DNA of 64,000 nt from Clostridia bacterium. Its GTDB lineage: Bacteria > Bacillota > Clostridia > Christensenellales > DTU072. Both the position numbers and the translations under genes were made by a program. The DNA is taken from the NCBI GenBank assembly GCA_035409945.1, contig DAONQC010000001.1, positions 21,571 through 85,570 on the forward strand, given 5' to 3'. Shown here piece by piece: positions 5,356-39,522 of the stretch. The stretch's first letter is position 1; each line of letters begins with the position of its first letter. A model generated the notes under the pieces. It was not told the DNA's origin and did no database searches. It was given only the letters and a program-made list of their open reading frames with translations.

Positions 5356-5517
5356 TATAGTTATAATCGTTGTTTAATGACACTAACTTTAGCAAGCGTT
5401 TCGCTTAAATAACATAAAAAATGAATTCTTCACATTATTTAGTTGATGTGGTATCCTATTGTATATATAGTTTGCGTTTTATGAAAAGTATATAAGATTT
5501 ATATCAATATTTAACAA

Positions 5518-6951
5518 TTGTACAAGAAACAACCACTTAGAGGTGATATGTTAATAACGGCAAGAGGGTTAAAAAATATATTATTTTTATTTTCGTTGAT
5601 ATTGCTTATTTGTGCTTTTTTATTCATTATAAGCACACTTGAGCAAAATTCTTATGATTACTTAGCAGAGGCATATAACAATTCTGACTTTTATGTAAAT
5701 TTAACGCCACAAGAATATGAGTATAATGCAACTCCACAATCTTTTGTCGTTGATATTAAATATAACAATGAAGATTTTGATGATTATACTGTCAATTATT
5801 TTAAAGATGGGAGTACAGAGAGGTTGGATGAGCCTCCAACTAATGCAAACAGTTATGATGTGGAAATATTCGTAGATGAATATAACAACTGGAGAACTTC
5901 TTTAATAATTACACCAAAGCCCATTACGGTTAATTATGCGGGTCCATATGAATATACATATTCAGGTTTACGACACGGTAGGACGATCACGGCAATTGGA
6001 GTAATTTCTCCAGATGATGTTGGATTACAAATTCAATATGAAGGTATAAACAATCTAGTTCCTGTTAACGAAATTCCAACCAATGTTGATGATTATGTTA
6101 TAACAGTTACATTATCCAATCAAAACTATTCAATTGGACTAACCACTGGGGAGGAAGTTGGTAAATTGCTGATTAATAAGGCTAATTTAATAGCTCGGGC
6201 TGAAGATGTAATCATAAAACCAGGAGAGACACCAAGATTTAATATAGTATATACTGGGTTTGTCTCGGGTGAAGATGAGAGTAATTTAAAAGAAAAGCCC
6301 ACTATAGTTTTTGAGGAGAGCGATCCAGGTAAATATCCAATAACTCCTCGAGGAGGTATTTCTTCAAACTATAAATTTGTTTATGAAGAGGGTACTGCAA
6401 TTATTGATTTTGATAAAATAGAAACGACGATAGAAGATCATACTTTTACAGTAATAGCATTTTTTGATCCCGATTTTGATTTACAAGTATCAAAAATAAC
6501 AAGTTCAGATGATGCTTTTAATACTGCCAATGAAATAATTAAAAATAGAGGAATGGATACTTATATGGATAAAGTTATCTATGCTTTCGATACTTCGCAG
6601 TCTACAGGAATTTCTAGAGATACAAAATACAAAATTCAGATATCAAATATTAAATTTAATGACATATTTGCATATAAACTATTTATTGTTGACGAGTTAG
6701 GTTTGGTTCATGAAATTAAAAAATTCAGCCGAAATGGTGATACAATTTCATTTACAACGCCCGAGCTGGGAACAATATTTGTGGTGGAAATGCAACTTAG
6801 AACATATTTGATTATTGGTATTTCGGTTGGGGTATGTATCGTTATTATAGCATTTTTCATATTTACCTATGTTAAGTATTTGATGGAGAAAAAGAATATT
6901 GATGAGCGAAATAGAAAACGTAGAAATAAAACACGGTATAAGTGGAATTAG
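5518..6951 (+). CDS. Membrane-anchored surface protein with MBG-like repeat modules (small paralogue of the 2818-aa protein)
   Basis: N-terminal TM helix (ILFLFSLILLICAFLFIIS). Modules of the form ITPKPITV...Y.YSG...NY, and KANL...GFVSGEDES...PGKYPI...NYKF. C-terminal TM helix plus a basic tail (RNRKRRNKTRYKWN). The start is uncertain (TTG 5518 or ATG 5548). Confidence 0.65.
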   Translation: MYKKQPLRGDMLITARGLKNILFLFSLILLICAFLFIISTLEQNSYDYLAEAYNNSDFYVNLTPQEYEYNATPQSFVVDIKYNNEDFDDYTVNYFKDGSTERLDEPPTNANSYDVEIFVDEYNNWRTSLIITPKPITVNYAGPYEYTYSGLRHGRTITAIGVISPDDVGLQIQYEGINNLVPVNEIPTNVDDYVITVTLSNQNYSIGLTTGEEVGKLLINKANLIARAEDVIIKPGETPRFNIVYTGFVSGEDESNLKEKPTIVFEESDPGKYPITPRGGISSNYKFVYEEGTAIIDFDKIETTIEDHTFTVIAFFDPDFDLQVSKITSSDDAFNTANEIIKNRGMDTYMDKVIYAFDTSQSTGISRDTKYKIQISNIKFNDIFAYKLFIVDELGLVHEIKKFSRNGDTISFTTPELGTIFVVEMQLRTYLIIGISVGVCIVIIAFFIFTYVKYLMEKKNIDERNRKRRNKTRYKWN

Positions 6952-7011
6952 ATGTTAATTTGAGTAAAATGAAATTACTTGCCTGCATTTTTCAATGTTA
7001 TGTATGATAGA

Positions 7012-7285
7012 TATTAGCCAACATCAATGTTAGTTATCAAAGTAAGTGCAATGGTAGATAACCCTCGAACGTTACAGGGTAAGTGCAACTTTTGATAGTA
7101 CTCGTAAGAAACTGAAGGTTTTTATTAGCCAACATCAATATATTTGTTGATATATTTGTTGCGGAAAAAATGTTGGCGTGATATTATAATCAAGAATTAA
7201 ACACTTGCATAGGTTCATTCCTGTTCCTTATTAGGTAAATGAACCAAATTATTATTCGCAAGGAAGAAAAAACAGGAGGTTTTAT
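7012..7285 (+). promoter_or_regulatory. Repeat-rich, structured 5' region upstream of rpsB-tsf (candidate cis-regulatory leader)
   Basis: A 17-nt direct repeat TATTAGCCAACATCAAT occurs at 7012-7028 and 7123-7139. A 63-nt symmetric stem-loop spans 7035-7097. The 12-mer ATATATTTGTTG is tandemly duplicated at 7138-7161. ATGTTGGC (7170-7177) is complementary to both 17-mers. The hairpin 7212-7245 has a loop (CCTGTTCCTT) complementary to the rpsB SD region. Confidence 0.4.
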
Positions 7286-8044
7286 ATGTCAGTTGTAACA
7301 ATGAAACAATTATTAGAAGTGGGACTTCATTTTGGGCATCAAGTGAGAAGATGGAATCCTAAGATGAAAGAGTATATCTATGGATCTAGAAATAATATCC
7401 ATATTATTAACCTACAAAAGGCTGTTGAATTAATCGAGGAAGCATATGCTTTTATTCAATCAGTTGCGGCAGAAGGTAAGGATATTCTTTTTGTTGGCAG
7501 AAAAAAACAGGCGAAAGATGTAATTAAGTCAGCTGCAGAGCGTTGCGGAATGTACTACATAAACGAGAGATGGTTAGGGGGGACTTTAACAAACTTTGCA
7601 ACTATTCGTTCCAGAATTGATAGACTAAACAAATTAGATCAAATGGAACAAATAGGTTCCTTTGAACTATTACCAAAAAAAGAGGTTATGCAATTAAACA
7701 AAGAACGCGAAATCCTTAGAAAGAATCTAGGCGGGATTCAAAACATGAGGAGTTTACCAGGAGCTCTTTTTATTGTTGATATTAAAGAAGAACATCTAGC
7801 CGTAGCCGAAGCAAATAAATTGAATATACCTATAGTTGCTTTAGTTGATACGAACTGTGACCCGGATTTGATTGATTATGTTATTCCAGGCAATGACGAT
7901 GCAATTAGAGCAGTGAAATTAATTTCTAACTTGATGGCGGACGCGGTTATCGTTGCTAGAGAGGGAGAGGAGGCTCTTAGTCTAAAACAGGTCGATGAGA
8001 TAGAAGGCGAAGACGCTCAAATAGAAGAAAAAGAAGATAATTAG
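7286..8044 (+). CDS. rpsB: 30S ribosomal protein S2
   Basis: [27 protein letters not shown] is a canonical S2 N-terminus. AGGAGG lies 7 nt upstream. Confidence 0.97.
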
Positions 8045-8091
8045 TTTTACTGTATTTATGATACAAAATTAAGAATGTAAGGAGGTGTGAC

Positions 8092-8763
8092 ATGGCGTTT
8101 ACTGCAAATGATGTTAGAGATTTACGTGTTCGTACTGGTGCTGGAATGATGGACTGTAAAAATGCGTTAGTAGAAACCAATGGGGATGTTGAAAAAGCAA
8201 TTGAATATTTAAGAGAAAAAGGCATTGCAAAAGCTGCTAAAAGGTCTGGACGAATTGCCTCTCAAGGTATTGTAGATAGTTACATACATATGGGTGGTAA
8301 AATAGGAGTGCTGCTAGAGCTTAACTGTGAAACTGACTTTGTAGCAAAGAGTGATATGTTTAAAGATTTAGCACATGATTTGACTTTACAAATTGCTGCA
8401 TCAAAAGCCCTTTATGTTGCCAGAGAAGAGGTTCCCTCTAACGAGATAGAACACGAGAAGAACATAATTAAAGCTCAAATTACAAACGATGAATCAATGA
8501 CTAACAAACCAGAACATGTAAAGGAAAGATTCGTCGAGGGGCGTATGGAAAAGTTTTTCAAAGATATTTGTTTGTTAGAACAGCCTTTTGTTAAAGACCC
8601 GAGTGTAACCGTAAATGATTTAGTTATGGAAGCAACAGCCAAAATCGGTGAAAAAATTTCTGTGAGAAGGTTTGTAAGATATGAAATGGGTGAGGGATTA
8701 GAAAAAAAATCTTGTAACCTAGCGGAAGAGGTTGATGCAGAAATAGCTAAAATGTCTAAATAA
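8092..8763 (+). CDS. tsf: Elongation factor Ts (short form, 223 aa)
   Basis: N-terminal UBA-like [19 protein letters not shown] and the [10 protein letters not shown] motif. It follows rpsB. Confidence 0.95.
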
Positions 8764-8770
8764 AATAAAG

Positions 8771-8796
8771 AGATACCTTAACGGGTATCTTTTTTC
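8771..8796 (+). terminator. Rho-independent terminator after tsf
   Basis: AGATACC-TTAAC-GGGTATCT hairpin followed by TTTTTC. Confidence 0.7.
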
Positions 8797-8810
8797 TTGT
8801 GGGGGATAAT

Positions 8811-9518
8811 ATGGCAATAAAATACAAAAGAGTATTACTAAAGATTTCAGGCGAGGCATTGGCGGGGGAAACCAAATTTGGTATAAATGAAGTTATTTTA
8901 GATAGTATTGTCAATCAAATTAAAGAGGTTCATTCTTTAGGTATTGAGATCGGTATAGTGGTCGGTGGCGGAAACTTTTGGCGAGGCAGGCAGGGTGGTG
9001 GTATGGATCGCACTACTGCGGATCATATGGGCATGCTGGCGACTGTAATCAATGCTTTGGCCATGCAAGATGCCTTAGAAAGAAAAGGTGTGATGACAAG
9101 GATTCAAACAGCTTTAGATATGACAAAAATAGCTGAACCATTTATTCAAAGGAGAGCTATTAGACATCTTGAAAAAGGTCGAGTTGTCATATTTGGGTGC
9201 GGAACTGGGAACCCGTTTTTCACAACAGATACCGCTGCTTCTTTACGTGCAAATGAAATACATGCAGATGTGTTATTACTAGCCAAAAATATTGATGGGG
9301 TTTACGATGCGGATCCTAAAAAATGCCCCAATGCGAAAAAATACAAAACTATTACACATAGAGAATACATTGAAAAAGGTTTAACATTTATGGACACCTC
9401 AGCTGTTGCATTATGTGACGAAAACAACATACCTATAATTGGATTTGGATTGAACGAACCGAGTAGTATAGTTAGGGTCGTTAGGGGCGAAACTATAGGA
9501 ACAATTATTTCACATTAA
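8811..9518 (+). CDS. pyrH: UMP kinase
   Basis: [12 protein letters not shown] and [10 protein letters not shown] motifs. The ATG at 8811 follows GGGGGA and is preferred to the GTG at 8799. Confidence 0.93.
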
Positions 9519-9579
9519 ACTGATTCGCTATTGGTTGAATAATCGGACAAACGTTTTGTTATACATTAGGTTATAAAAA

Positions 9580-9618
9580 TAGACTGTGGTTATAATATTT
9601 ACCACAGTCTATCTTTTT
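9580..9618. terminator. Bidirectional terminator between pyrH (+) and the protease gene (-)
   Basis: TAGACTGTGG / CCACAGTCTA stem with a 12-nt loop. An A-run lies upstream and a T-run downstream. Confidence 0.7.
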
Positions 9619-9649
9619 GTGTTGTTATTATTGGTGCAAGATGGTCTTA

Positions 9650-10930
9650 TTAGGGCGTGTATCCAAATACATATTGTTGCATTGTAAGTTCTACATCAAA
9701 TGTATTCGTAGTAGTAATTTGACCAAATATATTATATTGTCTTCGTTCAATTGTAATAATGATTTGGTCACCAACTTTTAAGTCTTTAATAAAATCTCCT
9801 AATGAGTTTGATTTATCGAAAAGGATAGGGGCTCCATCCTTCTTTTTAACTGCATTTATATAATCTCCTACAGCAATTTTGTTTCCATCAGCAGCCTGTT
9901 TGTTATAAACAGCAACAGTTCCAAAAGGATTTAGTTCATTAATTAAATATTCATACGAATTTGTTTGACCTTTTGCAATACGAACTGTTACTCCTAATCT
10001 AACTTTCCCTTCAACATATCCAAGGTGATTGTATTGTTCAGTTCCAGAGGTTCTAATTATGCTATTTGCAACTCTTTGAACATCGTTAATGTGTATTGCA
10101 TAGCCAATACCTTCTACTCCGCTTCCGGTGCTTTTTGCATTAACAATACCTATTAAATTTCCAGCAATATCAAAAAGGGCGCCCCCGGAGTTACCTTGGT
10201 TGACAGCTACATCAATTTGCAGTAAATTCATAGATACACCATCCATATTGATTACTCTTTCTTTTCCGCTTACAATTCCTTTAGTTACACTTCCGCCAAG
10301 TGTTCCTAAGGGATTCCCTATGGCAAAAACATCTTCACCAGTTTTAATATTTTCATCTTTATTTCTACAACTTACGGTTGAATATTTACCCTCAATGGTT
10401 TGTAAATCATTATCTAATATGGTTAGTATAGCTAAATCTTCTTCATCGTCACCTCCGAGGATTTTACACTCAACTTCCGTACCATCGTGAAGAACGGCAG
10501 TAATTTTTGTTTGTTTGTTTGTAGTTAAAGCATAATCAATCACATGGCAGCAAGTAACGAGTACTGGTTTTTTAGTCTCTTCGTCTTTACCATAAAAAAC
10601 AGCGGAGCCTGCTGATTTACTATTTGTTTCGGGATCAGTAACATATAGAGAAACGACAGAGGTTTCCACGCGTTCTACTGTTTCAGGAAAGGTGTAGGCT
10701 CCTTCGGGAAGAGGATTGCCTTCCTTTATCGTAATGTTGTAACTGGCTGGTGGTGCGATTGCAGATGGTTGGTTAGTTGTGTTATTTGACGAATTATCTG
10801 ATGAGTGAGTATTATCAGAGGAAGTATCATCTTTGAGTCCAACAAAAGATGGGCTGCAACCAGAAATGCTTATGATTACGAAAAAAATTAGCAATATGGA
10901 TATAAGAATAATAAAAGTTTTGCGTTTCAT
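9650..10930 (-). CDS. HtrA/DegP-like trypsin-family serine protease with C-terminal PDZ-like region, lipoprotein
   Basis: Lipobox ISISGC, and an S1 catalytic serine context GNSGGALFD. His and Asp contexts are TCCHVI and EEDLAIL. Confidence 0.85.
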   Translation of the reverse strand: MKRKTFIILISILLIFFVIISISGCSPSFVGLKDDTSSDNTHSSDNSSNNTTNQPSAIAPPASYNITIKEGNPLPEGAYTFPETVERVETSVVSLYVTDPETNSKSAGSAVFYGKDEETKKPVLVTCCHVIDYALTTNKQTKITAVLHDGTEVECKILGGDDEEDLAILTILDNDLQTIEGKYSTVSCRNKDENIKTGEDVFAIGNPLGTLGGSVTKGIVSGKERVINMDGVSMNLLQIDVAVNQGNSGGALFDIAGNLIGIVNAKSTGSGVEGIGYAIHINDVQRVANSIIRTSGTEQYNHLGYVEGKVRLGVTVRIAKGQTNSYEYLINELNPFGTVAVYNKQAADGNKIAVGDYINAVKKKDGAPILFDKSNSLGDFIKDLKVGDQIIITIERRQYNIFGQITTTNTFDVELTMQQYVFGYTP

Positions 10931-11041
10931 TTTTTCTCCTAATTTGTAATTTTACAAAGTCTAACACATCATAGTGAAAATAACGTGAAGTTTATATGCT
11001 CTTCTGTTTACTTTCTTACATAATTATAATACAATTTACCC

Positions 11042-12085
11042 ATGAATAGAACAAAAAAAGTGGTATTAAAAGATATTGATGCGTTAGTGATATCAAGTCC
11101 ATCTAATTTGTTTTACTTTACTGGGTATACTAATGTTGACGCGGTTCTCATAATTTCCCACAATGAGAGTTATTATATTTCTGATAGCAGAGTTGCTGAG
11201 GAGTTCGGAGAGTTTTGTCCAGGTGTGCAATTTGTACAAATTGGAAACGGTAAAACATATTACGAAAAAGCAATTGACGTACTAAAAGAGCTTAAAGCAA
11301 AACACATAGGCTATGAAGAGGATGATATGCTTTTCAAAAACTATGTGCTGTTTGATGAATTTTTTGAAATGCTGCGTTTCTCTAACCAAATAGCTATGCT
11401 CAGATCTATTAAAGATGATTTTGAGATTGAACAAATTATTTCAGCACAAAGTATAACGGATACTGTTTTTCACAATGTTTTAAATTACATAAACCCTGGT
11501 ATCACTGAACTGGAGTTAACAAACTATATTAACAGTAATATATTCGCTCTTGGGGGTAGTTTAGCATTTGATACAATTGTTGCATTTGGCAGAAATACTT
11601 CTAAACCTCACGCACATCCAGGTAAGAATATATTACAGACGAAGGATATTGTAACCATTGATTTTGGGGCTAAATTTAATGGTTATTGTTCAGATATGAC
11701 TAGAAGTTTTTGTGTCGGAAAACCATCGGATAGGTATATCAACACCTACAACCTGGTGTTGGAGGCGCAGTGTAATGCTATAAATCAAATGAAGGCAGGA
11801 TTGACAGGCCAAGAAATTGATGCCTTGGCGAGAAATTATTTTCCAAGTAGCATAGCTAAATACTTTACTCACTCTTTGGGGCATTCGTTTGGTATAGATA
11901 TTCACGAACGCCCAAGTTTAAGTCCATTATATACAGGAATTATCAATAAAAACGTTGTAACGAGCGTTGAGCCTGGATTATATTACACTGGTGATTATGG
12001 TGTACGTATAGAGGATATAGTATTAGTCAAAGAGAACGGTGTGCAAAACTTGACAAAATCGCCAAAAAAATTAATAATAATCTAG
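11042..12085 (+). CDS. M24-family Xaa-Pro aminopeptidase
   Basis: Pita-bread metal ligands ([31 protein letters not shown]). Its position upstream of efp matches other Firmicutes. Confidence 0.85.
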
Positions 12086-12107
12086 GTTACTGTTAGGAGG
12101 TATAAAA

Positions 12108-12674
12108 ATGGCATATATTACAGCAGGTGATTTTAGAAAAGGTGTTACATTTGAAATAGAAAATGGTTCAGTACAAGTGATTATTGATTTTCAACATGTA
12201 AAACCAGGGAAAGGAGCCGCATTCGTCCGAGCAAAAATGAGAAATGTTATGACGGGTGGTGTTATTGAAAGAACATTTAATCCGAACGAAAAATTTGAAC
12301 TTGCTCATATTGAACGCAAAAAGATGGATTATAGTTACAATGATGGTGATTTGTACTATTTCATGGATACTGAAACCTATGATCTAGTTCCGATGAATAA
12401 AGATTTAGTAGAAGATGCTTTACGTTTTATAAAAGAAGGTTCTCAAGTTGATGTTGCTTTTTACAAGGGCTCAGCATTTTCAGTAGAGCCGGAAAATTTT
12501 GTTGAATTGCAAATTGTAGAATGCGAGCCAGGATTGCCTGGAGCTACTGCGCAACCAGGAACTAAAACCGCGGTTTTAGAAACAGGTTTTTCTATTCAAG
12601 TACCTTTATTTGTTAATGAGGGTGAAGTTGTAAGAGTCGATACGAGAACCGGCGAATATATGTCAAGGGCGTAA
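12108..12674 (+). CDS. efp: Elongation factor P
   Basis: The motif [15 protein letters not shown] is present, the length is 188 aa, and AGGAGG lies upstream. Confidence 0.96.
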
Positions 12675-34548: not shown

Positions 34549-34736
34549 AATCTCTAAATCAAAATATTAAACACAGATTTTTTAATAATTCCATCTGTAA
34601 TATATTTTATTTTTAAGCCATTTTTTTAGAATTTTGTAAAAAATATAAAAATACTTGGATTGCAAACAATTTTTAATTATTTGCGTATTTTGTCATTTTT
34701 TGACTAAAAATAACCATTATTCATCGCCCCCTATTT

Positions 34737-34774
34737 GCATCTATTCGCAAAATCGGTATTTTGCGAATAGATGC
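34737..34774. repeat. Perfect 17-bp inverted repeat with 4-bp centre (candidate dif-like / operator site)
   Basis: The sequence is GCATCTATTCGCAAAAT-cggt-ATTTTGCGAATAGATGC. CCCCT (34728-34732) / AGGGG (34775-34779) extend the stem across a 4-nt bulge. The direct repeat CCCCTATTTG occurs at 34728-34737 and 34805-34814. Confidence 0.9.
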
Positions 34775-34871
34775 AGGGGTAATATGTTTGTTATTTTCCC
34801 TTTTCCCCTATTTGAGAATAAACATTTGCATGCCTTTAAATTAAATATAAACAATAAATAATTCGCTTCTA

Positions 34872-34902
34872 TTACAATTAATATGTTTAAATATGGTATA
34901 AT
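34872..34902 (+). promoter_or_regulatory. Promoter for the recombinase-lexA operon with leaderless geometry
   Basis: TTACAA (34872-34877), a 19-nt spacer, then TGgTATAAT (34894-34902). The predicted +1 is the A of ATG 34909, and there is no SD. Confidence 0.45.
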
Positions 34903-34908
34903 AAATTT

Positions 34909-35991
34909 ATGGAAAAGACTAACTATTTTGAATTAAAAAAGTATAACCAATTATCTAAGTTAAATGATATTTTGGAAAATAATCTACCATTTTTTTGTAG
35001 GGAATTCTTCGTAGGAATTTCAATGCGTGTAGCATCATCAACTCAATTGAATTATGCTAGAGATTTAGTCATATTTTTCGATTTTCTTGTAAAAAAAATT
35101 AACCATTTCTATGGAAAATCCATAAACTCAATAACATTGGCTGATTTAGATGCTTTAGAAAGTCAACATATAGAGTTTTATTTGAGTTATCTATCCTACT
35201 ATAAATTTAATGGAAAAATCAGAACTAATAATGAAAGAGGCAAAGCAAGAAAGCTAAGCGCTATTAAATCTATGTTAAATTATTTTTATAAGAGAGATTT
35301 AATTCAAGAAAATGTCAGTTTAAAAGTTGATACTCCAAAAATTCACGATAAACCCATTATTCGTCTTGATAATGACGAAGTCGAATCAATGTTATCAGTA
35401 GTTGAAAAAGAATCTAAGTTTCATTCATCACGTCAAGATAATTATAATTCAAGAGTTATTAAACGCGATACTGCCCTATTAACACTACTTTTAGGTACTG
35501 GTATAAGAGTTAGTGAATGCGTCGGTCTAAATTTACTAGATATAGACTTTAAAAATAATGCCTTTAAAGTAACTCGAAAAGGTGGTAATATATCAGTGCT
35601 CTATTTTTCTAACGAAATTAAACAGGCACTTGATGACTATATTATATGGAGGTATGAACGATTGGCGAAAGCAAATAAACTCGATACGCCTGCTTTGTTT
35701 ATAAGCCTTCAAAACAAGCGTATTACTACACGCGCAGTTGAAAATATTGTAAAAAAATATGCGAAATTAATTTCTCCATTAAAATCTATATCTCCACATA
35801 AACTACGAAGCACATATGGTACTGCTTTATACAGAGAAACTAAAGATATCTTTATTGTAGCTGAAGTATTAGGACATAAGGATGTAAATACAACAAAAAA
35901 ACATTATGCTGCTATATCTGAAGACATAAAAAAAGATGCTGCGACGAGAGTAAAATTACGTAGACATTCTCAAATAGACACAGACAAGTGA
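34909..35991 (+). CDS. XerS-like tyrosine site-specific recombinase
   Basis: A complete R-K-H-R-H-Y catalytic set is present (GIRVSE, VTRKGG, HKLRST, LGHKD, KKHY). The N-terminal core-binding region has an XerS-like pattern (LPFFCREFF...FFDFLV), as recalled from memory. Confidence 0.8.
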   Translation: MEKTNYFELKKYNQLSKLNDILENNLPFFCREFFVGISMRVASSTQLNYARDLVIFFDFLVKKINHFYGKSINSITLADLDALESQHIEFYLSYLSYYKFNGKIRTNNERGKARKLSAIKSMLNYFYKRDLIQENVSLKVDTPKIHDKPIIRLDNDEVESMLSVVEKESKFHSSRQDNYNSRVIKRDTALLTLLLGTGIRVSECVGLNLLDIDFKNNAFKVTRKGGNISVLYFSNEIKQALDDYIIWRYERLAKANKLDTPALFISLQNKRITTRAVENIVKKYAKLISPLKSISPHKLRSTYGTALYRETKDIFIVAEVLGHKDVNTTKKHYAAISEDIKKDAATRVKLRRHSQIDTDK

Positions 35992-36071
35992 AATTATTAA
36001 TCAAGATTTAGAATCATTATTTACTTTAATTAACGATAATTATTGAGAGTATAGCCAGAAGAGGACTTTAA

Positions 36072-36695
36072 ATGAAAAATGATATTATAACCAACAAATT
36101 AAATAAATTGAGGTTTTTTTTAAAGGAGTATTTTATTAAAAACACCTATCCACCCACTATTAGAGAAATTTGTAACTATATGGGTTTCAAATCTACGTCC
36201 AGTGCACATAAATATCTTAGATTGTTAAGAGATTTAGGAGAGATATCGATTGATTCCAATATAAGTAGAGGTATTAAGCTAGAAAAGAACATTTTTGAAT
36301 TGCCAGGAATTAATTTAGTCCCCCTACTTAGTAGTATTGTTTCGGGTCAACAGCTCTTCGCGGAGGAGTCATATACCAAGCATATTCCCCTTCCTCAATC
36401 ATTTTTTGGTTACAATGATAATTTATTGTTGATTAAAGTTTCAGGTTCAAGCATGATAGATGTAGGCATTAATGATGGGGATTATATTGTAATTCATAAA
36501 CAACCATTTGCTTCTAGCGGTGATATAATAGCTGCTTTAATTGACAACGAATATATAACAGTTAAAAGATATTATATAGACCATAATAACGTGGTTAGAT
36601 TGCACCCTGAAAATAAAAACATGAGTGATGTTTATCCTGAAAACATTCAAGTTTTGGGTATAGTAAAAGGACTTATTCGTACAGAGGTAAAATAA
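36072..36695 (+). CDS. lexA: LexA repressor (S24 peptidase)
   Basis: wHTH with YPPTIREI, catalytic Ser in GSSMID and Lys in TVKRYY. The cleavage-site position reads VS-GQ rather than the usual A-G. Confidence 0.88.
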   Translation: MKNDIITNKLNKLRFFLKEYFIKNTYPPTIREICNYMGFKSTSSAHKYLRLLRDLGEISIDSNISRGIKLEKNIFELPGINLVPLLSSIVSGQQLFAEESYTKHIPLPQSFFGYNDNLLLIKVSGSSMIDVGINDGDYIVIHKQPFASSGDIIAALIDNEYITVKRYYIDHNNVVRLHPENKNMSDVYPENIQVLGIVKGLIRTEVK

Positions 36696-38077
36696 TGAAT
36701 AAAATTAACACAATTAATACTGACTTATTTAGGAGTAGAGTGGACACGATTGTGTTGAATACCCTATCGGAAAAAGATAGGTATGGTTATGAAATTCTAG
36801 AAATAATCGCACAAAATTCAGTTAGTCACTATGAAATTAAGCAATCAACATTATATAGTATTTTAAAACGACTAGAAAACTTAGAGTATATATCGTCATA
36901 TGATGGACTCGAAACTAATGGCGCGCAACGTAAATACTATACTCTAACAGACAAAGGTAGAAGTTTTTTAGAAACACAGAAATATGAATGGGAGTATACA
37001 AGGACTCTATTAGACAAATTGGTTAGTAATAAGCCTGTTGACTTAATTGATTCTTTATCCACATTCCCTTATAATCCAAATGATTTAAAGCCAAAGACGC
37101 CTAGAAAATCAAAATTACAAGGTCAACAGGAGTATGATGATAATATAAATATGCAACAAGATGCAAAAGATATGAATAATAATATTGATTTATCTACTGA
37201 AACAACAAGTTTTAACATAAATCAAACGCTAGAATCAGACATGAGTTTTAAAAATCAAAGGGAAAACAATCAATCACCATCTATGGAAGAACAATTAGAA
37301 AGAGAACGGGCCGAAAAGCTTTTAGGATTAGGAGTATACTTACCACTAGAATCAACTGATGTGTCCAATAAGAATGCTGACGACATAAACGTACAACCTA
37401 CGCTTTCGACCATAGGAGTCGCAGAAAATAGTATAATAAATGCTACGCCAAGTTTAAACTATAGAGAAGCCCTAGGCTTATTATATACCGATGACAACAG
37501 TCTTTTTCATGATGGAGAGATTACTAATGAAGCAAACGAAGAGGCGCTGTATATCAAGGCTGAAAACTCTCGTTTCCCGCACTATAACGATATGAAAAAA
37601 AGGCTATTTGATGAAGGGTACACCGTAAAGACATACAACAAGGCAAACTCTAGTAATTTTTATTATATGAACTATTATTATTCTAACAAACTATTTAGAG
37701 ATTTAACACTTATTGTTTATATATTTTATGCTACCCTACTTACGATATTAAGCTTTTTGCCCGAAGCATTACAATTGTCAAGACCTTCTTTTTTATCCGC
37801 ACTAGGTATTGGGTTAATAGTTCCAACAGTTAGATTATTAATATATTTACAAAACCCACTCAAGAGAATAAGAGCAAAATTTAACGCATTAAAAATAATA
37901 TTATATTTTACCCTATGGATGACTTTTTCAGTATTAATAATTTTTCTTATCAATTTAATAAATGATACAATTTGTGATAGTTTATATTTAGTATTTATTC
38001 TATACTCAAGCATACCATTTGCAATGCTAATATACTATTTGATGTTTAGATCAAATAAATATCATTTAAAGAAATAG
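36695..38077 (+). CDS. PadR-family wHTH protein fused to a low-complexity linker and a 4-TM C-terminal membrane domain
   Basis: PadR signature (LSEKDRYGYEILE...STLYSILKRLE...RKYYTLTDKG). An Asn/Gln/Asp-rich linker follows, then four hydrophobic helices at aa ~335-455. The start overlaps the lexA stop (TAATG). Confidence 0.75.
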   Translation: MNKINTINTDLFRSRVDTIVLNTLSEKDRYGYEILEIIAQNSVSHYEIKQSTLYSILKRLENLEYISSYDGLETNGAQRKYYTLTDKGRSFLETQKYEWEYTRTLLDKLVSNKPVDLIDSLSTFPYNPNDLKPKTPRKSKLQGQQEYDDNINMQQDAKDMNNNIDLSTETTSFNINQTLESDMSFKNQRENNQSPSMEEQLERERAEKLLGLGVYLPLESTDVSNKNADDINVQPTLSTIGVAENSIINATPSLNYREALGLLYTDDNSLFHDGEITNEANEEALYIKAENSRFPHYNDMKKRLFDEGYTVKTYNKANSSNFYYMNYYYSNKLFRDLTLIVYIFYATLLTILSFLPEALQLSRPSFLSALGIGLIVPTVRLLIYLQNPLKRIRAKFNALKIILYFTLWMTFSVLIIFLINLINDTICDSLYLVFILYSSIPFAMLIYYLMFRSNKYHLKK

Positions 38078-38085
38078 AAATATTG

Positions 38086-38535
38086 CTATCTGTTATTTGA
38101 TTTAGTCAAAGATTCTCTTCGAGCCATTTCATCACATTTATTGTTATATTGGTTATCAGAATGCCCTTTTACTTTATTAAATGTAACGATATGAGGCTGT
38201 ATTGCATAAACAAGCCTTTCCCATAGATCTTTATTTTTGACTGGTTGGCGAGTTTTTGTTTTCCAATCATTATTTTTCCAGTTAGTAATCCACCCTTCTT
38301 GAAATGCATTTACTAAATATGCACTATCTGAGTATAAATTTACAAAACACGGTTCTTTTAAAGCCTCAATACCTTTTATTGCAGCAAGTAATTCCATTCT
38401 ATTATTTGTTGTTTCCGGCACGTTACCATATAAGATTTTTTCATGTTGTTGATAAATTAAGATTGCACACCATCCACCGTTTCCAGGGTTACCGCTACAG
38501 GCTCCATCAGTATAAATATCTACTCTTTTATTCAT
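38086..38535 (-). CDS. rnhA: Ribonuclease HI
   Basis: The motifs IYTDGACSGNPG.GGW, NNRMEL.A and KGHS....N..CD are present. Confidence 0.92.
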   Translation of the reverse strand: MNKRVDIYTDGACSGNPGNGGWCAILIYQQHEKILYGNVPETTNNRMELLAAIKGIEALKEPCFVNLYSDSAYLVNAFQEGWITNWKNNDWKTKTRQPVKNKDLWERLVYAIQPHIVTFNKVKGHSDNQYNNKCDEMARRESLTKSNNR

Positions 38536-39407: not shown

Positions 39408-39483
39408 AGGGGAGTGGCTCAATTGGTAGAGCATCGGTCTCCAAAACCGACGGTTGCGTGTTCGAGTCGCGTCTCCCCTGCCA
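39408..39483 (+). tRNA. trnW: tRNA-Trp (anticodon CCA), CCA end encoded
   Basis: Cloverleaf: acceptor AGGGGAG/CTCCCCT, D-arm GCTC..GAGC, anticodon stem TCGGT/ACCGA with loop CTCCAAA, and T-arm GCGTG-TTCGAGT-CGCGT, ending in GCCA. Confidence 0.93.
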
Positions 39484-39486
39484 ACC

Positions 39487-39522
39487 ATGTCCATTATGTA
39501 ACTACATAATGGACATTTTTAT
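39487..39522 (+). terminator. Rho-independent terminator after tRNA-Trp
   Basis: A 14-bp stem, ATGTCCATTATGTA / TACATAATGGACAT, followed by TTTTTATT. Confidence 0.8.

Follow-up and report, generated by a model that had tools for sequence, protein, structure and literature searches.

The 64,000-nt stretch of contig DAONQC010000001.1 (Clostridia bacterium, assembly GCA_035409945.1), referred to here as the window, carries a long palindrome upstream of a gene for an XerS-like tyrosine recombinase (xer). The palindrome is probably, at roughly 80%, the dif site of an XerS-like Xer module for chromosome-dimer resolution in a large clade of Clostridia, which includes Christensenellales-type and related gut lineages. 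A preliminary description of the window had proposed a dif site, and this reading is supported by conservation, GC skew, prophage insertion and a negative control of loci without the site. Two of these lines go beyond the checks suggested in that description, namely integrase-less inovirus prophages at the site and the lack of a skew flip in loci that have only the gene. What is directly computed is that the architecture is conserved, that the site is at the terminus and linked to the recombinase, and that mobile elements are inserted at it.

In the proposed mechanism, two monomers of the adjacent 360-aa XerS-like recombinase would bind the identical 14-nt arms ATCTATTCGCAAAA of the site. Two sites on a chromosome dimer would synapse at the division septum, and strand cleavage and exchange would take place where the arms meet the 6-bp centre, via a Holliday junction. 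Activation would probably come from a translocase of the FtsK/SpoIIIE type that is guided to the terminus. Integrase-less filamentous phages would hijack the same reaction to integrate, as integrative elements exploiting Xer (IMEX) do. The adjacent recombinase as the enzyme, the cleavage positions, the dependence on a translocase and the resolution of dimers by this system alone are the inferred parts of the scheme.

Architecture and Conservation of the Site

Positions 34737-34774 read GCATCTATTCGCAAAAT-CGGT-ATTTTGCGAATAGATGC, with the 17/17 matching arms first described, and a repeat finder extends the match to 18/18 complementary positions (34736-34753 and 34758-34775) around a centre of 4 nt. 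No perfect inverted repeat in the window with a loop of at most 10 nt is longer. The arm length is far above chance: the longest arm in 40 first-order Markov simulations of the window is 12, reached in two runs, and is shorter than 12 in the others. The palindrome is 189 nt from the preceding stop codon (34548) and 135 nt from the recombinase ATG (34909), in agreement with the distances given earlier. The site within it has the properties of a generic dif, which is about 30 bp long, AT-rich, partly palindromic and non-coding, with two arms and a centre of 6-8 bp (PMC9765430, PMC3025954).

The comparison comprises 80 recombinase loci of 48-58% identity, kept from at least 598 species matched, with about 20 kb read per related locus. 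A palindrome scan 5′ of each orthologue returns the same sequence type again and again. The search pattern TTCGYAAAA-N6-TTTTRCGAA finds the motif in 59/81 sequences from different Clostridia, so that the conservation beside orthologous recombinases that the preliminary description had named as a check is present. The best site is 5′ of the recombinase gene in every case, at -39 to about -8.8 kb. With up to two mismatches, the motif occurs 58 times in 1.41 Mb of orthologous loci, compared with 0-3 times in simulations.

Alignment of 56 sites gives the arm consensus A-W-C-T-A-T-K-C-G-Y-A-A-A-A, a weakly conserved N6 centre and the complement arm. The positions beyond the search pattern are conserved too, hence the arms of 14 nt. 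Both arms share a single consensus and co-vary symmetrically (TTCG/CGAA versus TGCG/CGCA). This pattern fits what would be expected of a homodimeric protein bound to both arms, and not of an RNA hairpin.

In the nearest relatives, whose recombinase is 83% identical, the palindrome is imperfect (left arm TTCGT, right arm GCGAA) and the 14-6-14 core is kept. The spacer between ynbB and xer has diverged from these relatives except for two islands, the site and an extended -10 element of the recombinase gene. The perfect symmetry that was described at first is real in the window but is not kept in these relatives. The flanking features described with it fare likewise. The direct repeat CCCCTATTTG is present at 34728-34737 and 34805-34814, and CCCC...GGGG surrounds the palindrome, pairing only via a 4-nt bulge on the left side, but neither the repeat nor the CCCCT/AGGGG extension is conserved in these relatives. 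Both are rejected as parts of the element. By this comparison the perfect symmetry and the flanking repeats are incidental, and the CCCCTATTTG region could be the scar or remnant of an old insertion.

Both in the window and in the related loci, the site falls between genes. It lies at most 700 bp upstream of the recombinase gene in 33/56 site-bearing loci and 2-4 kb from it in 13 loci, and some species have the gene with no full site nearby. There is one site in the window and, as a rule, one per locus, with a second degenerate or tandem copy in a few loci. Two synteny arrangements occur (Table 1). In the first, mutS-mutL-miaA-ynbB is followed by the site and by xer-lexA-padR; in the second, mutSL-miaA-ynbB and padR-rnhA-proC again form the two flanks, but the site-xer-lexA block between them is inverted as a whole, and the site stays 5′ of xer. 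Judged by these arrangements, site and gene behave as one genetic module, as they do in XerS/difSL and XerH/difH. The orientation of the 6-bp centre was also compared with synteny and was dropped, as the trend is weak (keto-rich 5 versus 3 in the first arrangement and 3 versus 9 in the second).

In some loci, another site or half-site, degenerate in sequence, is found between xer and the full site (L018:7935 and 9801; L014:557 and 897; L101:3569 and 8476; 34805-34832 in the window). These pairs enclose 0.3-5 kb with small open reading frames (ORFs), and the second copies may be scars of past insertions. The 22 contigs from conspecific strains of the window's species represent two nearly identical contexts, with an identical spacer in the one compared, and no insertion polymorphism was seen at the site among them.

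Position at the Replication Terminus

GC skew is positive over the left 34 kb of the window and negative over the right 26 kb. The cumulative skew peaks in the 36-38 kb bin, and the site lies at this maximum apart from an offset of 2.9 kb, the raw maximum (37617) being to its right. The gene-orientation switch, which the preliminary description placed 3.3 kb from the palindrome, is found there: genes are on the plus strand up to 38077 and on the minus strand from 38086.

The orthologous loci show the same pattern. Skew can be tested in the 48 loci whose site is flanked by 3 kb or more in both directions. It is positive on the left in 43, negative on the right in 45 and both in 41, while one locus has the opposite pattern. 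Pooled skew anchored at the site is positive in 8/8 1-kb bins on the left (0.04-0.10) and negative in 8/8 on the right. In the 13 loci with a distant site, skew changes from +0.067 to -0.084 at the site, 2-3 kb upstream of the gene. The genes between site and xer in these loci are serS and another ORF, both on the minus strand, as expected of the other replichore.

Loci that have the gene and no full site within 10 kb serve as the negative control. Their skew is monotonic, and a (+,-) flip is seen in 0/12 of those with usable flanks. The contrast of 41/48 with 0/12 (Fisher's exact p = 4e-8) indicates that the full site tracks the terminus and not merely the gene.

The polarity of KOPS-like octamers, which guide FtsK/SpoIIIE, was another check named at the outset. 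The octamers point toward the site from both sides, at 49:2 for GGGNAGGG and 28:3 for GAGAAGGG. Placing the locus on a near-complete genome, by way of the 2.39-Mb scaffold that carries P0038, was tried and rejected; the scaffold start is arbitrary, so the position of the gene at 1.62 Mb is uninformative about its distance from the origin.

Prophages and Other Elements at the Site

Several integrase-less prophages of inovirus type are found at the site beside dtd-xer (L106, L085, L088 and L094; L147 and L183; L104:1-2440), and among related or conspecific strains at least three different elements are inserted at this one site. The clearest arrangement is in the 14.4-kb metagenome contig L106. 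It has host housekeeping genes, a degenerate site at 5514 with a 1-nt insertion in the right arm, a 6.5-kb element, a perfect site at 12083, dtd and xer. Among the products of the element (5514-12112) are a Zot-like protein (phrog_197) and a Rep of rolling-circle type (phrog_3419); none of its sizeable ORFs has a recombinase domain. Like an IMEX, it lacks a recombinase of its own, lies at dif and has dif-like copies on both sides. The same phage is present in L085, L088 and L094. In L085, a Zot-family ATPase and a G2P-type Rep lie between two copies of the site next to the host D-Tyr-tRNA deacylase gene, again with no integrase.

The conspecific contigs L147 and L104 place one junction exactly. 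They are 98.9% identical rightwards from the outer edge of the left arm (L147:7385 = L104:2436, which is 4 nt before the 30-bp motif match). Leftwards they are unrelated, and each has a different inovirus-like element. These junctions are the signature of integrative elements that exploit host Xer at dif.

An exact-pattern scan of viral contigs finds the full site on 21 of them, and 19 have no xer, lexA or ynbB nearby. On tailed-phage contigs, one full site lies beside terminase genes with no xer homologue nearby. On five of them it follows an ORF of about 140 aa and precedes terL (Table 1). Such a site could serve Xer-dependent integration or the resolution of multimers of a plasmid-like prophage.

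Tandem pairs of exact full sites, at two spacings, are present on several metagenome contigs; they may be what is left of excised elements, or else mini dif-modules.

Weighing of the Dif Reading

A number of points weigh against the dif reading. The raw skew maximum of the window lies at the end of the plus-strand xer-lexA-padR block and not at the site, and at the scale of 2.9 kb skew is inseparable from gene orientation or coding-strand bias. Seven of the 48 testable site-bearing loci have no clean (+,-) skew. The polarity of the KOPS-like octamers is confounded by G-skew, gene orientation and Shine-Dalgarno-like words, and it is supporting evidence only. The copy count covers 64 kb of this genome and about 20 kb of each related locus. 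With 175 bits, the recombinase is below the XerS equivalog cutoff of 267 bits. The attL and attR centres of the L106 insertion differ (TGGGTG versus CATGAG), and the insertion is therefore not explained by one simple exchange. XerC and XerD are reported to be widespread in Firmicutes (PMC8136486). Binding, cleavage and dimer resolution are all deductions from sequence comparison.

The best surviving alternative, although an unlikely one, is that the palindrome is a genuine Xer site used by the recombinase and by mobile elements, while a canonical XerCD/dif elsewhere resolves dimers. Its role could then be that of a domesticated integration module, an attB hotspot or a decatenation site. XerC and XerD are described as ancient as well as widespread in Firmicutes (PMC8136486), Lactobacillus helveticus has both XerCD and XerS, and prophages do use the site. 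Against this, the skew flip coincides with the site in 41/48 loci and the site is absent where the flip is absent, a pattern that dif should show and an arbitrary attB should not. The inserted elements also lack an integrase, like IMEX at true dif sites. A search of the window for a canonical XerCD-type dif, as the preliminary description had advised, gives only chance-level matches with three mismatches to the Firmicutes sequence ATATATTATGTAAACT; no canonical dif is found within 34 kb to the left or 29 kb to the right of the skew switch.

It is less likely still that the palindrome is the operator of a dimeric regulator for a xer-lexA operon, whether a divergent LexA box, a PadR-like site or a site of pure recombinase auto-repression. 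The palindrome is upstream of xer-lexA, phages often carry boxes for host repressors, and the motif is on phage contigs. In addition, no Cheo box (GAAC-N4-GTTC) is found for lexA at 34.5-36.1 kb, including 35991-36072 upstream of the gene, and window-wide counts are at chance level; this absence counts against the dif reading as well. The palindrome itself was rejected as a LexA Cheo box, since its sequence and spacing differ. The LexA or PadR operator that the preliminary description offered as an alternative is not upheld by the position of the site either. The site is about 120 bp upstream of the conserved -10 element of xer and does not overlap it. In the 13 distant-site loci, oppositely oriented housekeeping genes lie between site and xer. 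The site also persists where lexA or padR is absent, distant or on the other side.

A motif-first metagenome scan, which returned at least 120 loci, bears on the same alternative. Among the matches listed, xer lies in the fetched stretch of 39, and about 60 show at least one marker of the terminus neighbourhood; 27 of the listed contigs extend 2.5 kb or more on both sides, and xer is present in 14 of these. The other contexts among the matches listed are varied, with housekeeping genes (thioredoxin, thioesterase, sigma factor, hydrolases and permeases) or phage packaging modules. No SOS (recA/uvr/dinB-type) regulon or other recurrent target regulon is seen among them. An operator also explains neither the skew flip at the site nor the prophages between site copies.

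A single arm does occupy an operator-like position in some genomes. In seven species that have the gene away from the terminus, a lone arm is found in the 17-bp spacer of the xer promoter, as TTGACA-TTTTGCGAATAGTT...TAAAAT, and the -10 after it is TAAAAT, TACAAT or TATACT. The four of these loci with long enough flanks (L023, L038, L044 and L054) have no (+,-) skew flip at the gene. As the lone arm occupies the position of a repressor operator, it suggests that the recombinase may auto-repress its own promoter. The arm sequence is thereby tied to the recombinase independently of the full site. Such half-site auto-repression could exist alongside a dif function and is no substitute for the dif reading.

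A structural hairpin, such as a ynbB terminator, a xer attenuator or an unrelated stem-loop, is highly improbable. The predicted RNA is very stable (minimum free energy -37.8 kcal/mol for 131 nt, z = -5.8), and the co-variation of the arms keeps the palindrome. However, the pyrimidine/purine position of the arms is discordant both ways (C/A in about 10 loci and T/G in about 9), and so no single RNA strand keeps the stem paired. The invariant A4-N6-T4 with a variable 6-nt centre is instead the layout of a recombinase core site. The flanking genes are convergent, divergent or co-oriented, depending on the locus. As the preliminary description held, this is not a typical terminator: none is called, GGGGTAATATG and no T-tract comes after the stem, and Rfam gives no match there. 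A terminus-organising or fork-arrest protein site (Ter/RTP-like or MatP-like) without recombination is about as improbable, as it would account for the strict terminus location, but one symmetric site gives no polar arrest, terminus-organising sites are multi-copy and not found once per locus, and neither the prophages between copies nor the joint movement of the site and the linked recombinase gene is explained.

Comparison with Characterized Xer Systems

The known single-recombinase systems are XerS/difSL, XerH/difH, archaeal XerA and XerL. The dif reading places the present site closest to XerS/difSL (Le Bourgeois 2007, PMC1914069; Nolivos 2010, PMC2965235). That system has a single long recombinase (356 aa, compared with 360 here) and a site just upstream of its gene, so that both form one module at the terminus, and runs of A4 and T4 lie beside the centre, as they do here. 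XerS is also the best curated model over the full length of the present protein, which scores below the equivalog cutoff. The difSL of L. lactis used in vitro reads ATCTTTCCGAAAA-ACTGTAA-TTTTCTTGACA (PMC2965235), and the difSL arm TTCCGAAAA that was given in the preliminary description is correct by the same source. The high-affinity left arm of difSL, ATCTTTCCGAAAA, agrees with ATCTATTCGCAAAA at 11/14 positions with one gap in a by-eye alignment, and is thus similar but not the same. In contrast, difSL is 31 bp long and has unequal arms, with an extra base on the right, and a larger centre (11 bp in a review), whereas the present site is 14-6-14 with one arm consensus. The hosts are Streptococcaceae in one case and Clostridia in the other, and only here are gene and site kilobases apart or separated in some species.

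XerH/difH of Helicobacter and Campylobacter (PMC3325230; PMC5241119) also comprises a single recombinase of 354-362 aa with the site near the gene. The inner arm ends of difH are GAAAA...TTTTC (A4/T4), and its centre is 6 bp in the crystal-structure definition. It differs by weak sequence similarity of the protein (5jjv) and by imperfect arms of unequal affinity. XerL/dif of Legionellales (PMC9765430) has long uninterrupted inverted-repeat arms and is a precedent for near-perfect symmetry. Its site was recognised through the mobile element LME-1, which integrates at dif and is comparable to the inovirus insertions here. XerL belongs to another recombinase family, and xerL is more than 400 kb from dif, whereas the present gene usually abuts the site.

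XerCD/dif and its IMEX (CTX-phi, VGJ-phi and TLC-phi; PMC5357621) share the terminus location, arms of 11-14 nt and a 6-bp centre. Integrase-less filamentous phages integrate there and leave one functional and one degenerate copy. XerCD has two paralogous recombinases and two different arms, in contrast to the one arm consensus here. Archaeal XerA has a single recombinase and 11-6-11 sites, with gene and site adjacent or separated, but it is FtsK-independent, and it has a shorter protein and another arm sequence.

The searched literature gave no description of a clostridial XerS-like/dif system, which is not proof of novelty, and the dif predictions tabulated in the supplement of Kono et al. 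(2011) cover a few Clostridium genomes, are all of XerCD type and do not include such a motif. The system is apparently undescribed for Clostridia. A broader proposal is tentative, with odds put slightly short of even. It states that this is a new single-recombinase Xer system, sister or ancestral to XerS/difSL, which would be the principal means of dimer resolution in much of the Clostridia (at least 598 species). It would have a symmetric 14-6-14 dif and auto-repression via a lone arm, and its dif would be a hotspot for integrase-less filamentous phages and possibly for site-carrying tailed phages.

Dimer resolution is part of core chromosome maintenance, and only a handful of Xer systems (XerCD, XerS, XerH, XerA and XerL) are characterized. 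If the proposal is true, a distinct XerS-like system with its own dif joins that list, and a gap is filled for a very large and mostly uncultured group of gut Clostridia. The site would then mark the terminus exactly at sequence level, which would help in the assembly and orientation of genomes and metagenome-assembled genomes, and it would hint at the source of the streptococcal XerS/difSL module. The prophages would be the first IMEX described for Clostridia, and would represent a class of integrase-less Firmicutes prophages (IMEX) that integrase-keyed prophage finders would miss. A compact, symmetric site of 34 bp with a single 360-aa recombinase could also be developed into a genetic tool for organisms in which engineering is difficult.

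Recombinase Gene and Neighbouring Features

The top NCBIfam match of the recombinase is XerS (NF003462, 175.3 bits, model positions 7-357 of 360), followed by XerA (153 bits), XerC (150 bits) and XerD (143 bits). This agrees with the XerS-like assignment made at first, with the score below the cutoff. The full RKHRHY catalytic set is confirmed as well, since R200, K224, H297, R300, H323 and Y333 are invariant in 16 homologues. The protein aligns to XerD (1a0p) across the catalytic motifs, with the tyrosine shifted by one residue in the pairwise alignment, and its match to XerH (PDB 5jjv, E = 2e-8) is weaker than that to XerD. The family is large and well conserved in Clostridia, and a genome-collection scan matched it in at least 598 species.

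The extended -10 element TGnTATAAT ends 6 nt 5′ of the recombinase ATG, with the same spacing in relatives, and no Shine-Dalgarno sequence is present (34894-34911). The recombinase mRNA is probably leaderless, because the -10 is so close to the ATG and a Shine-Dalgarno sequence is lacking. The assignment of the element is by sequence and conservation, and a simple promoter scan did not list it.

Table 1. Coordinates of the site, the recombinase gene and associated features in the window, and loci (L numbers) with related features.
Feature	Position or loci	Strand	Remarks
Candidate dif site, 34 bp	34739..34772	.	14-6-14; consensus of 56 sites, conserved island, skew flip, prophage insertion
Left arm ATCTATTCGCAAAA	34739-34752		14 nt
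Centre TCGGTA	34753-34758		6 bp
Right arm TTTTGCGAATAGAT	34759-34772		Complement of left arm
Full perfect palindrome	34736..34775	.	Outermost pairs outside conserved arms
Extended -10 TGGTATAAT of recombinase gene	34894..34902	+	Second conserved island in intergenic alignment
XerS-like tyrosine recombinase, 360 aa	34909..35991	+	NCBIfam, PF00589, catalytic residues; presumed enzyme for the site
lexA	36072..36695	+	TIGR00498, 150 bits, above cutoff
Replichore junction	34700..38100	.	GC-skew sign change and gene-orientation switch
Window-type arrangement	Window, L001, L002, L018, L039, L058, L074, L079
Inverted site-xer-lexA arrangement	L009, L011, L031, L033, L035, L050, L056, L062, L071, L073
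Lone arm TTTTRCGMATAGTT right after perfect -35 TTGACA	L023, L038, L040, L044, L045, L054, L077		-56 to -87 from xer start
Tailed-phage site	L083, L090, L091, L092, L100		20-55 bp after ~140-aa ORF, 0.6-0.8 kb before terL
Further tailed-phage sites	L095:3131, L097:5446, L082:389
Tandem sites, 127-128 bp apart	L144 (242, 370), L145 (4875, 5003), L206 (163, 290)
Tandem sites, 162-163 bp apart	L157 (410, 572), L159 (2546, 2708), L185 (844, 1007)

The region of the window is AT-rich, with about 30-35% G+C. Its gene order is mutS, mutL, miaA, a PF06838 gene of the methionine-gamma-lyase family (ynbB-like), the palindrome, the recombinase gene, lexA and a PadR-family gene, followed by the RNase H gene and proC on the opposite strand. 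The flanking genes vary across species and include ynbB, padR, rnhA, dtd, serS, thioredoxin and others. lexA often follows the recombinase gene but need not do so: many loci that keep site and xer lack it or have it elsewhere, and it does not belong to the recombination module.

The PadR-family protein of the window (36695-38077) is unusually long at 460 aa; it includes a linker of low complexity, and its C-terminal region is hydrophobic and apparently spans the membrane. The start of its gene overlaps the lexA stop by one base. An Rfam scan of 33.5-40.5 kb returns only a tRNA, the tRNA-Trp (CCA) on the plus strand at 39408-39483. A 14-nt perfect inverted repeat follows it (39487-39516) and is probably its terminator. 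The tRNA gene overlaps the minus-strand proC ORF of 320 aa at the 5′ end of the latter, and the true start of proC must therefore be further downstream.

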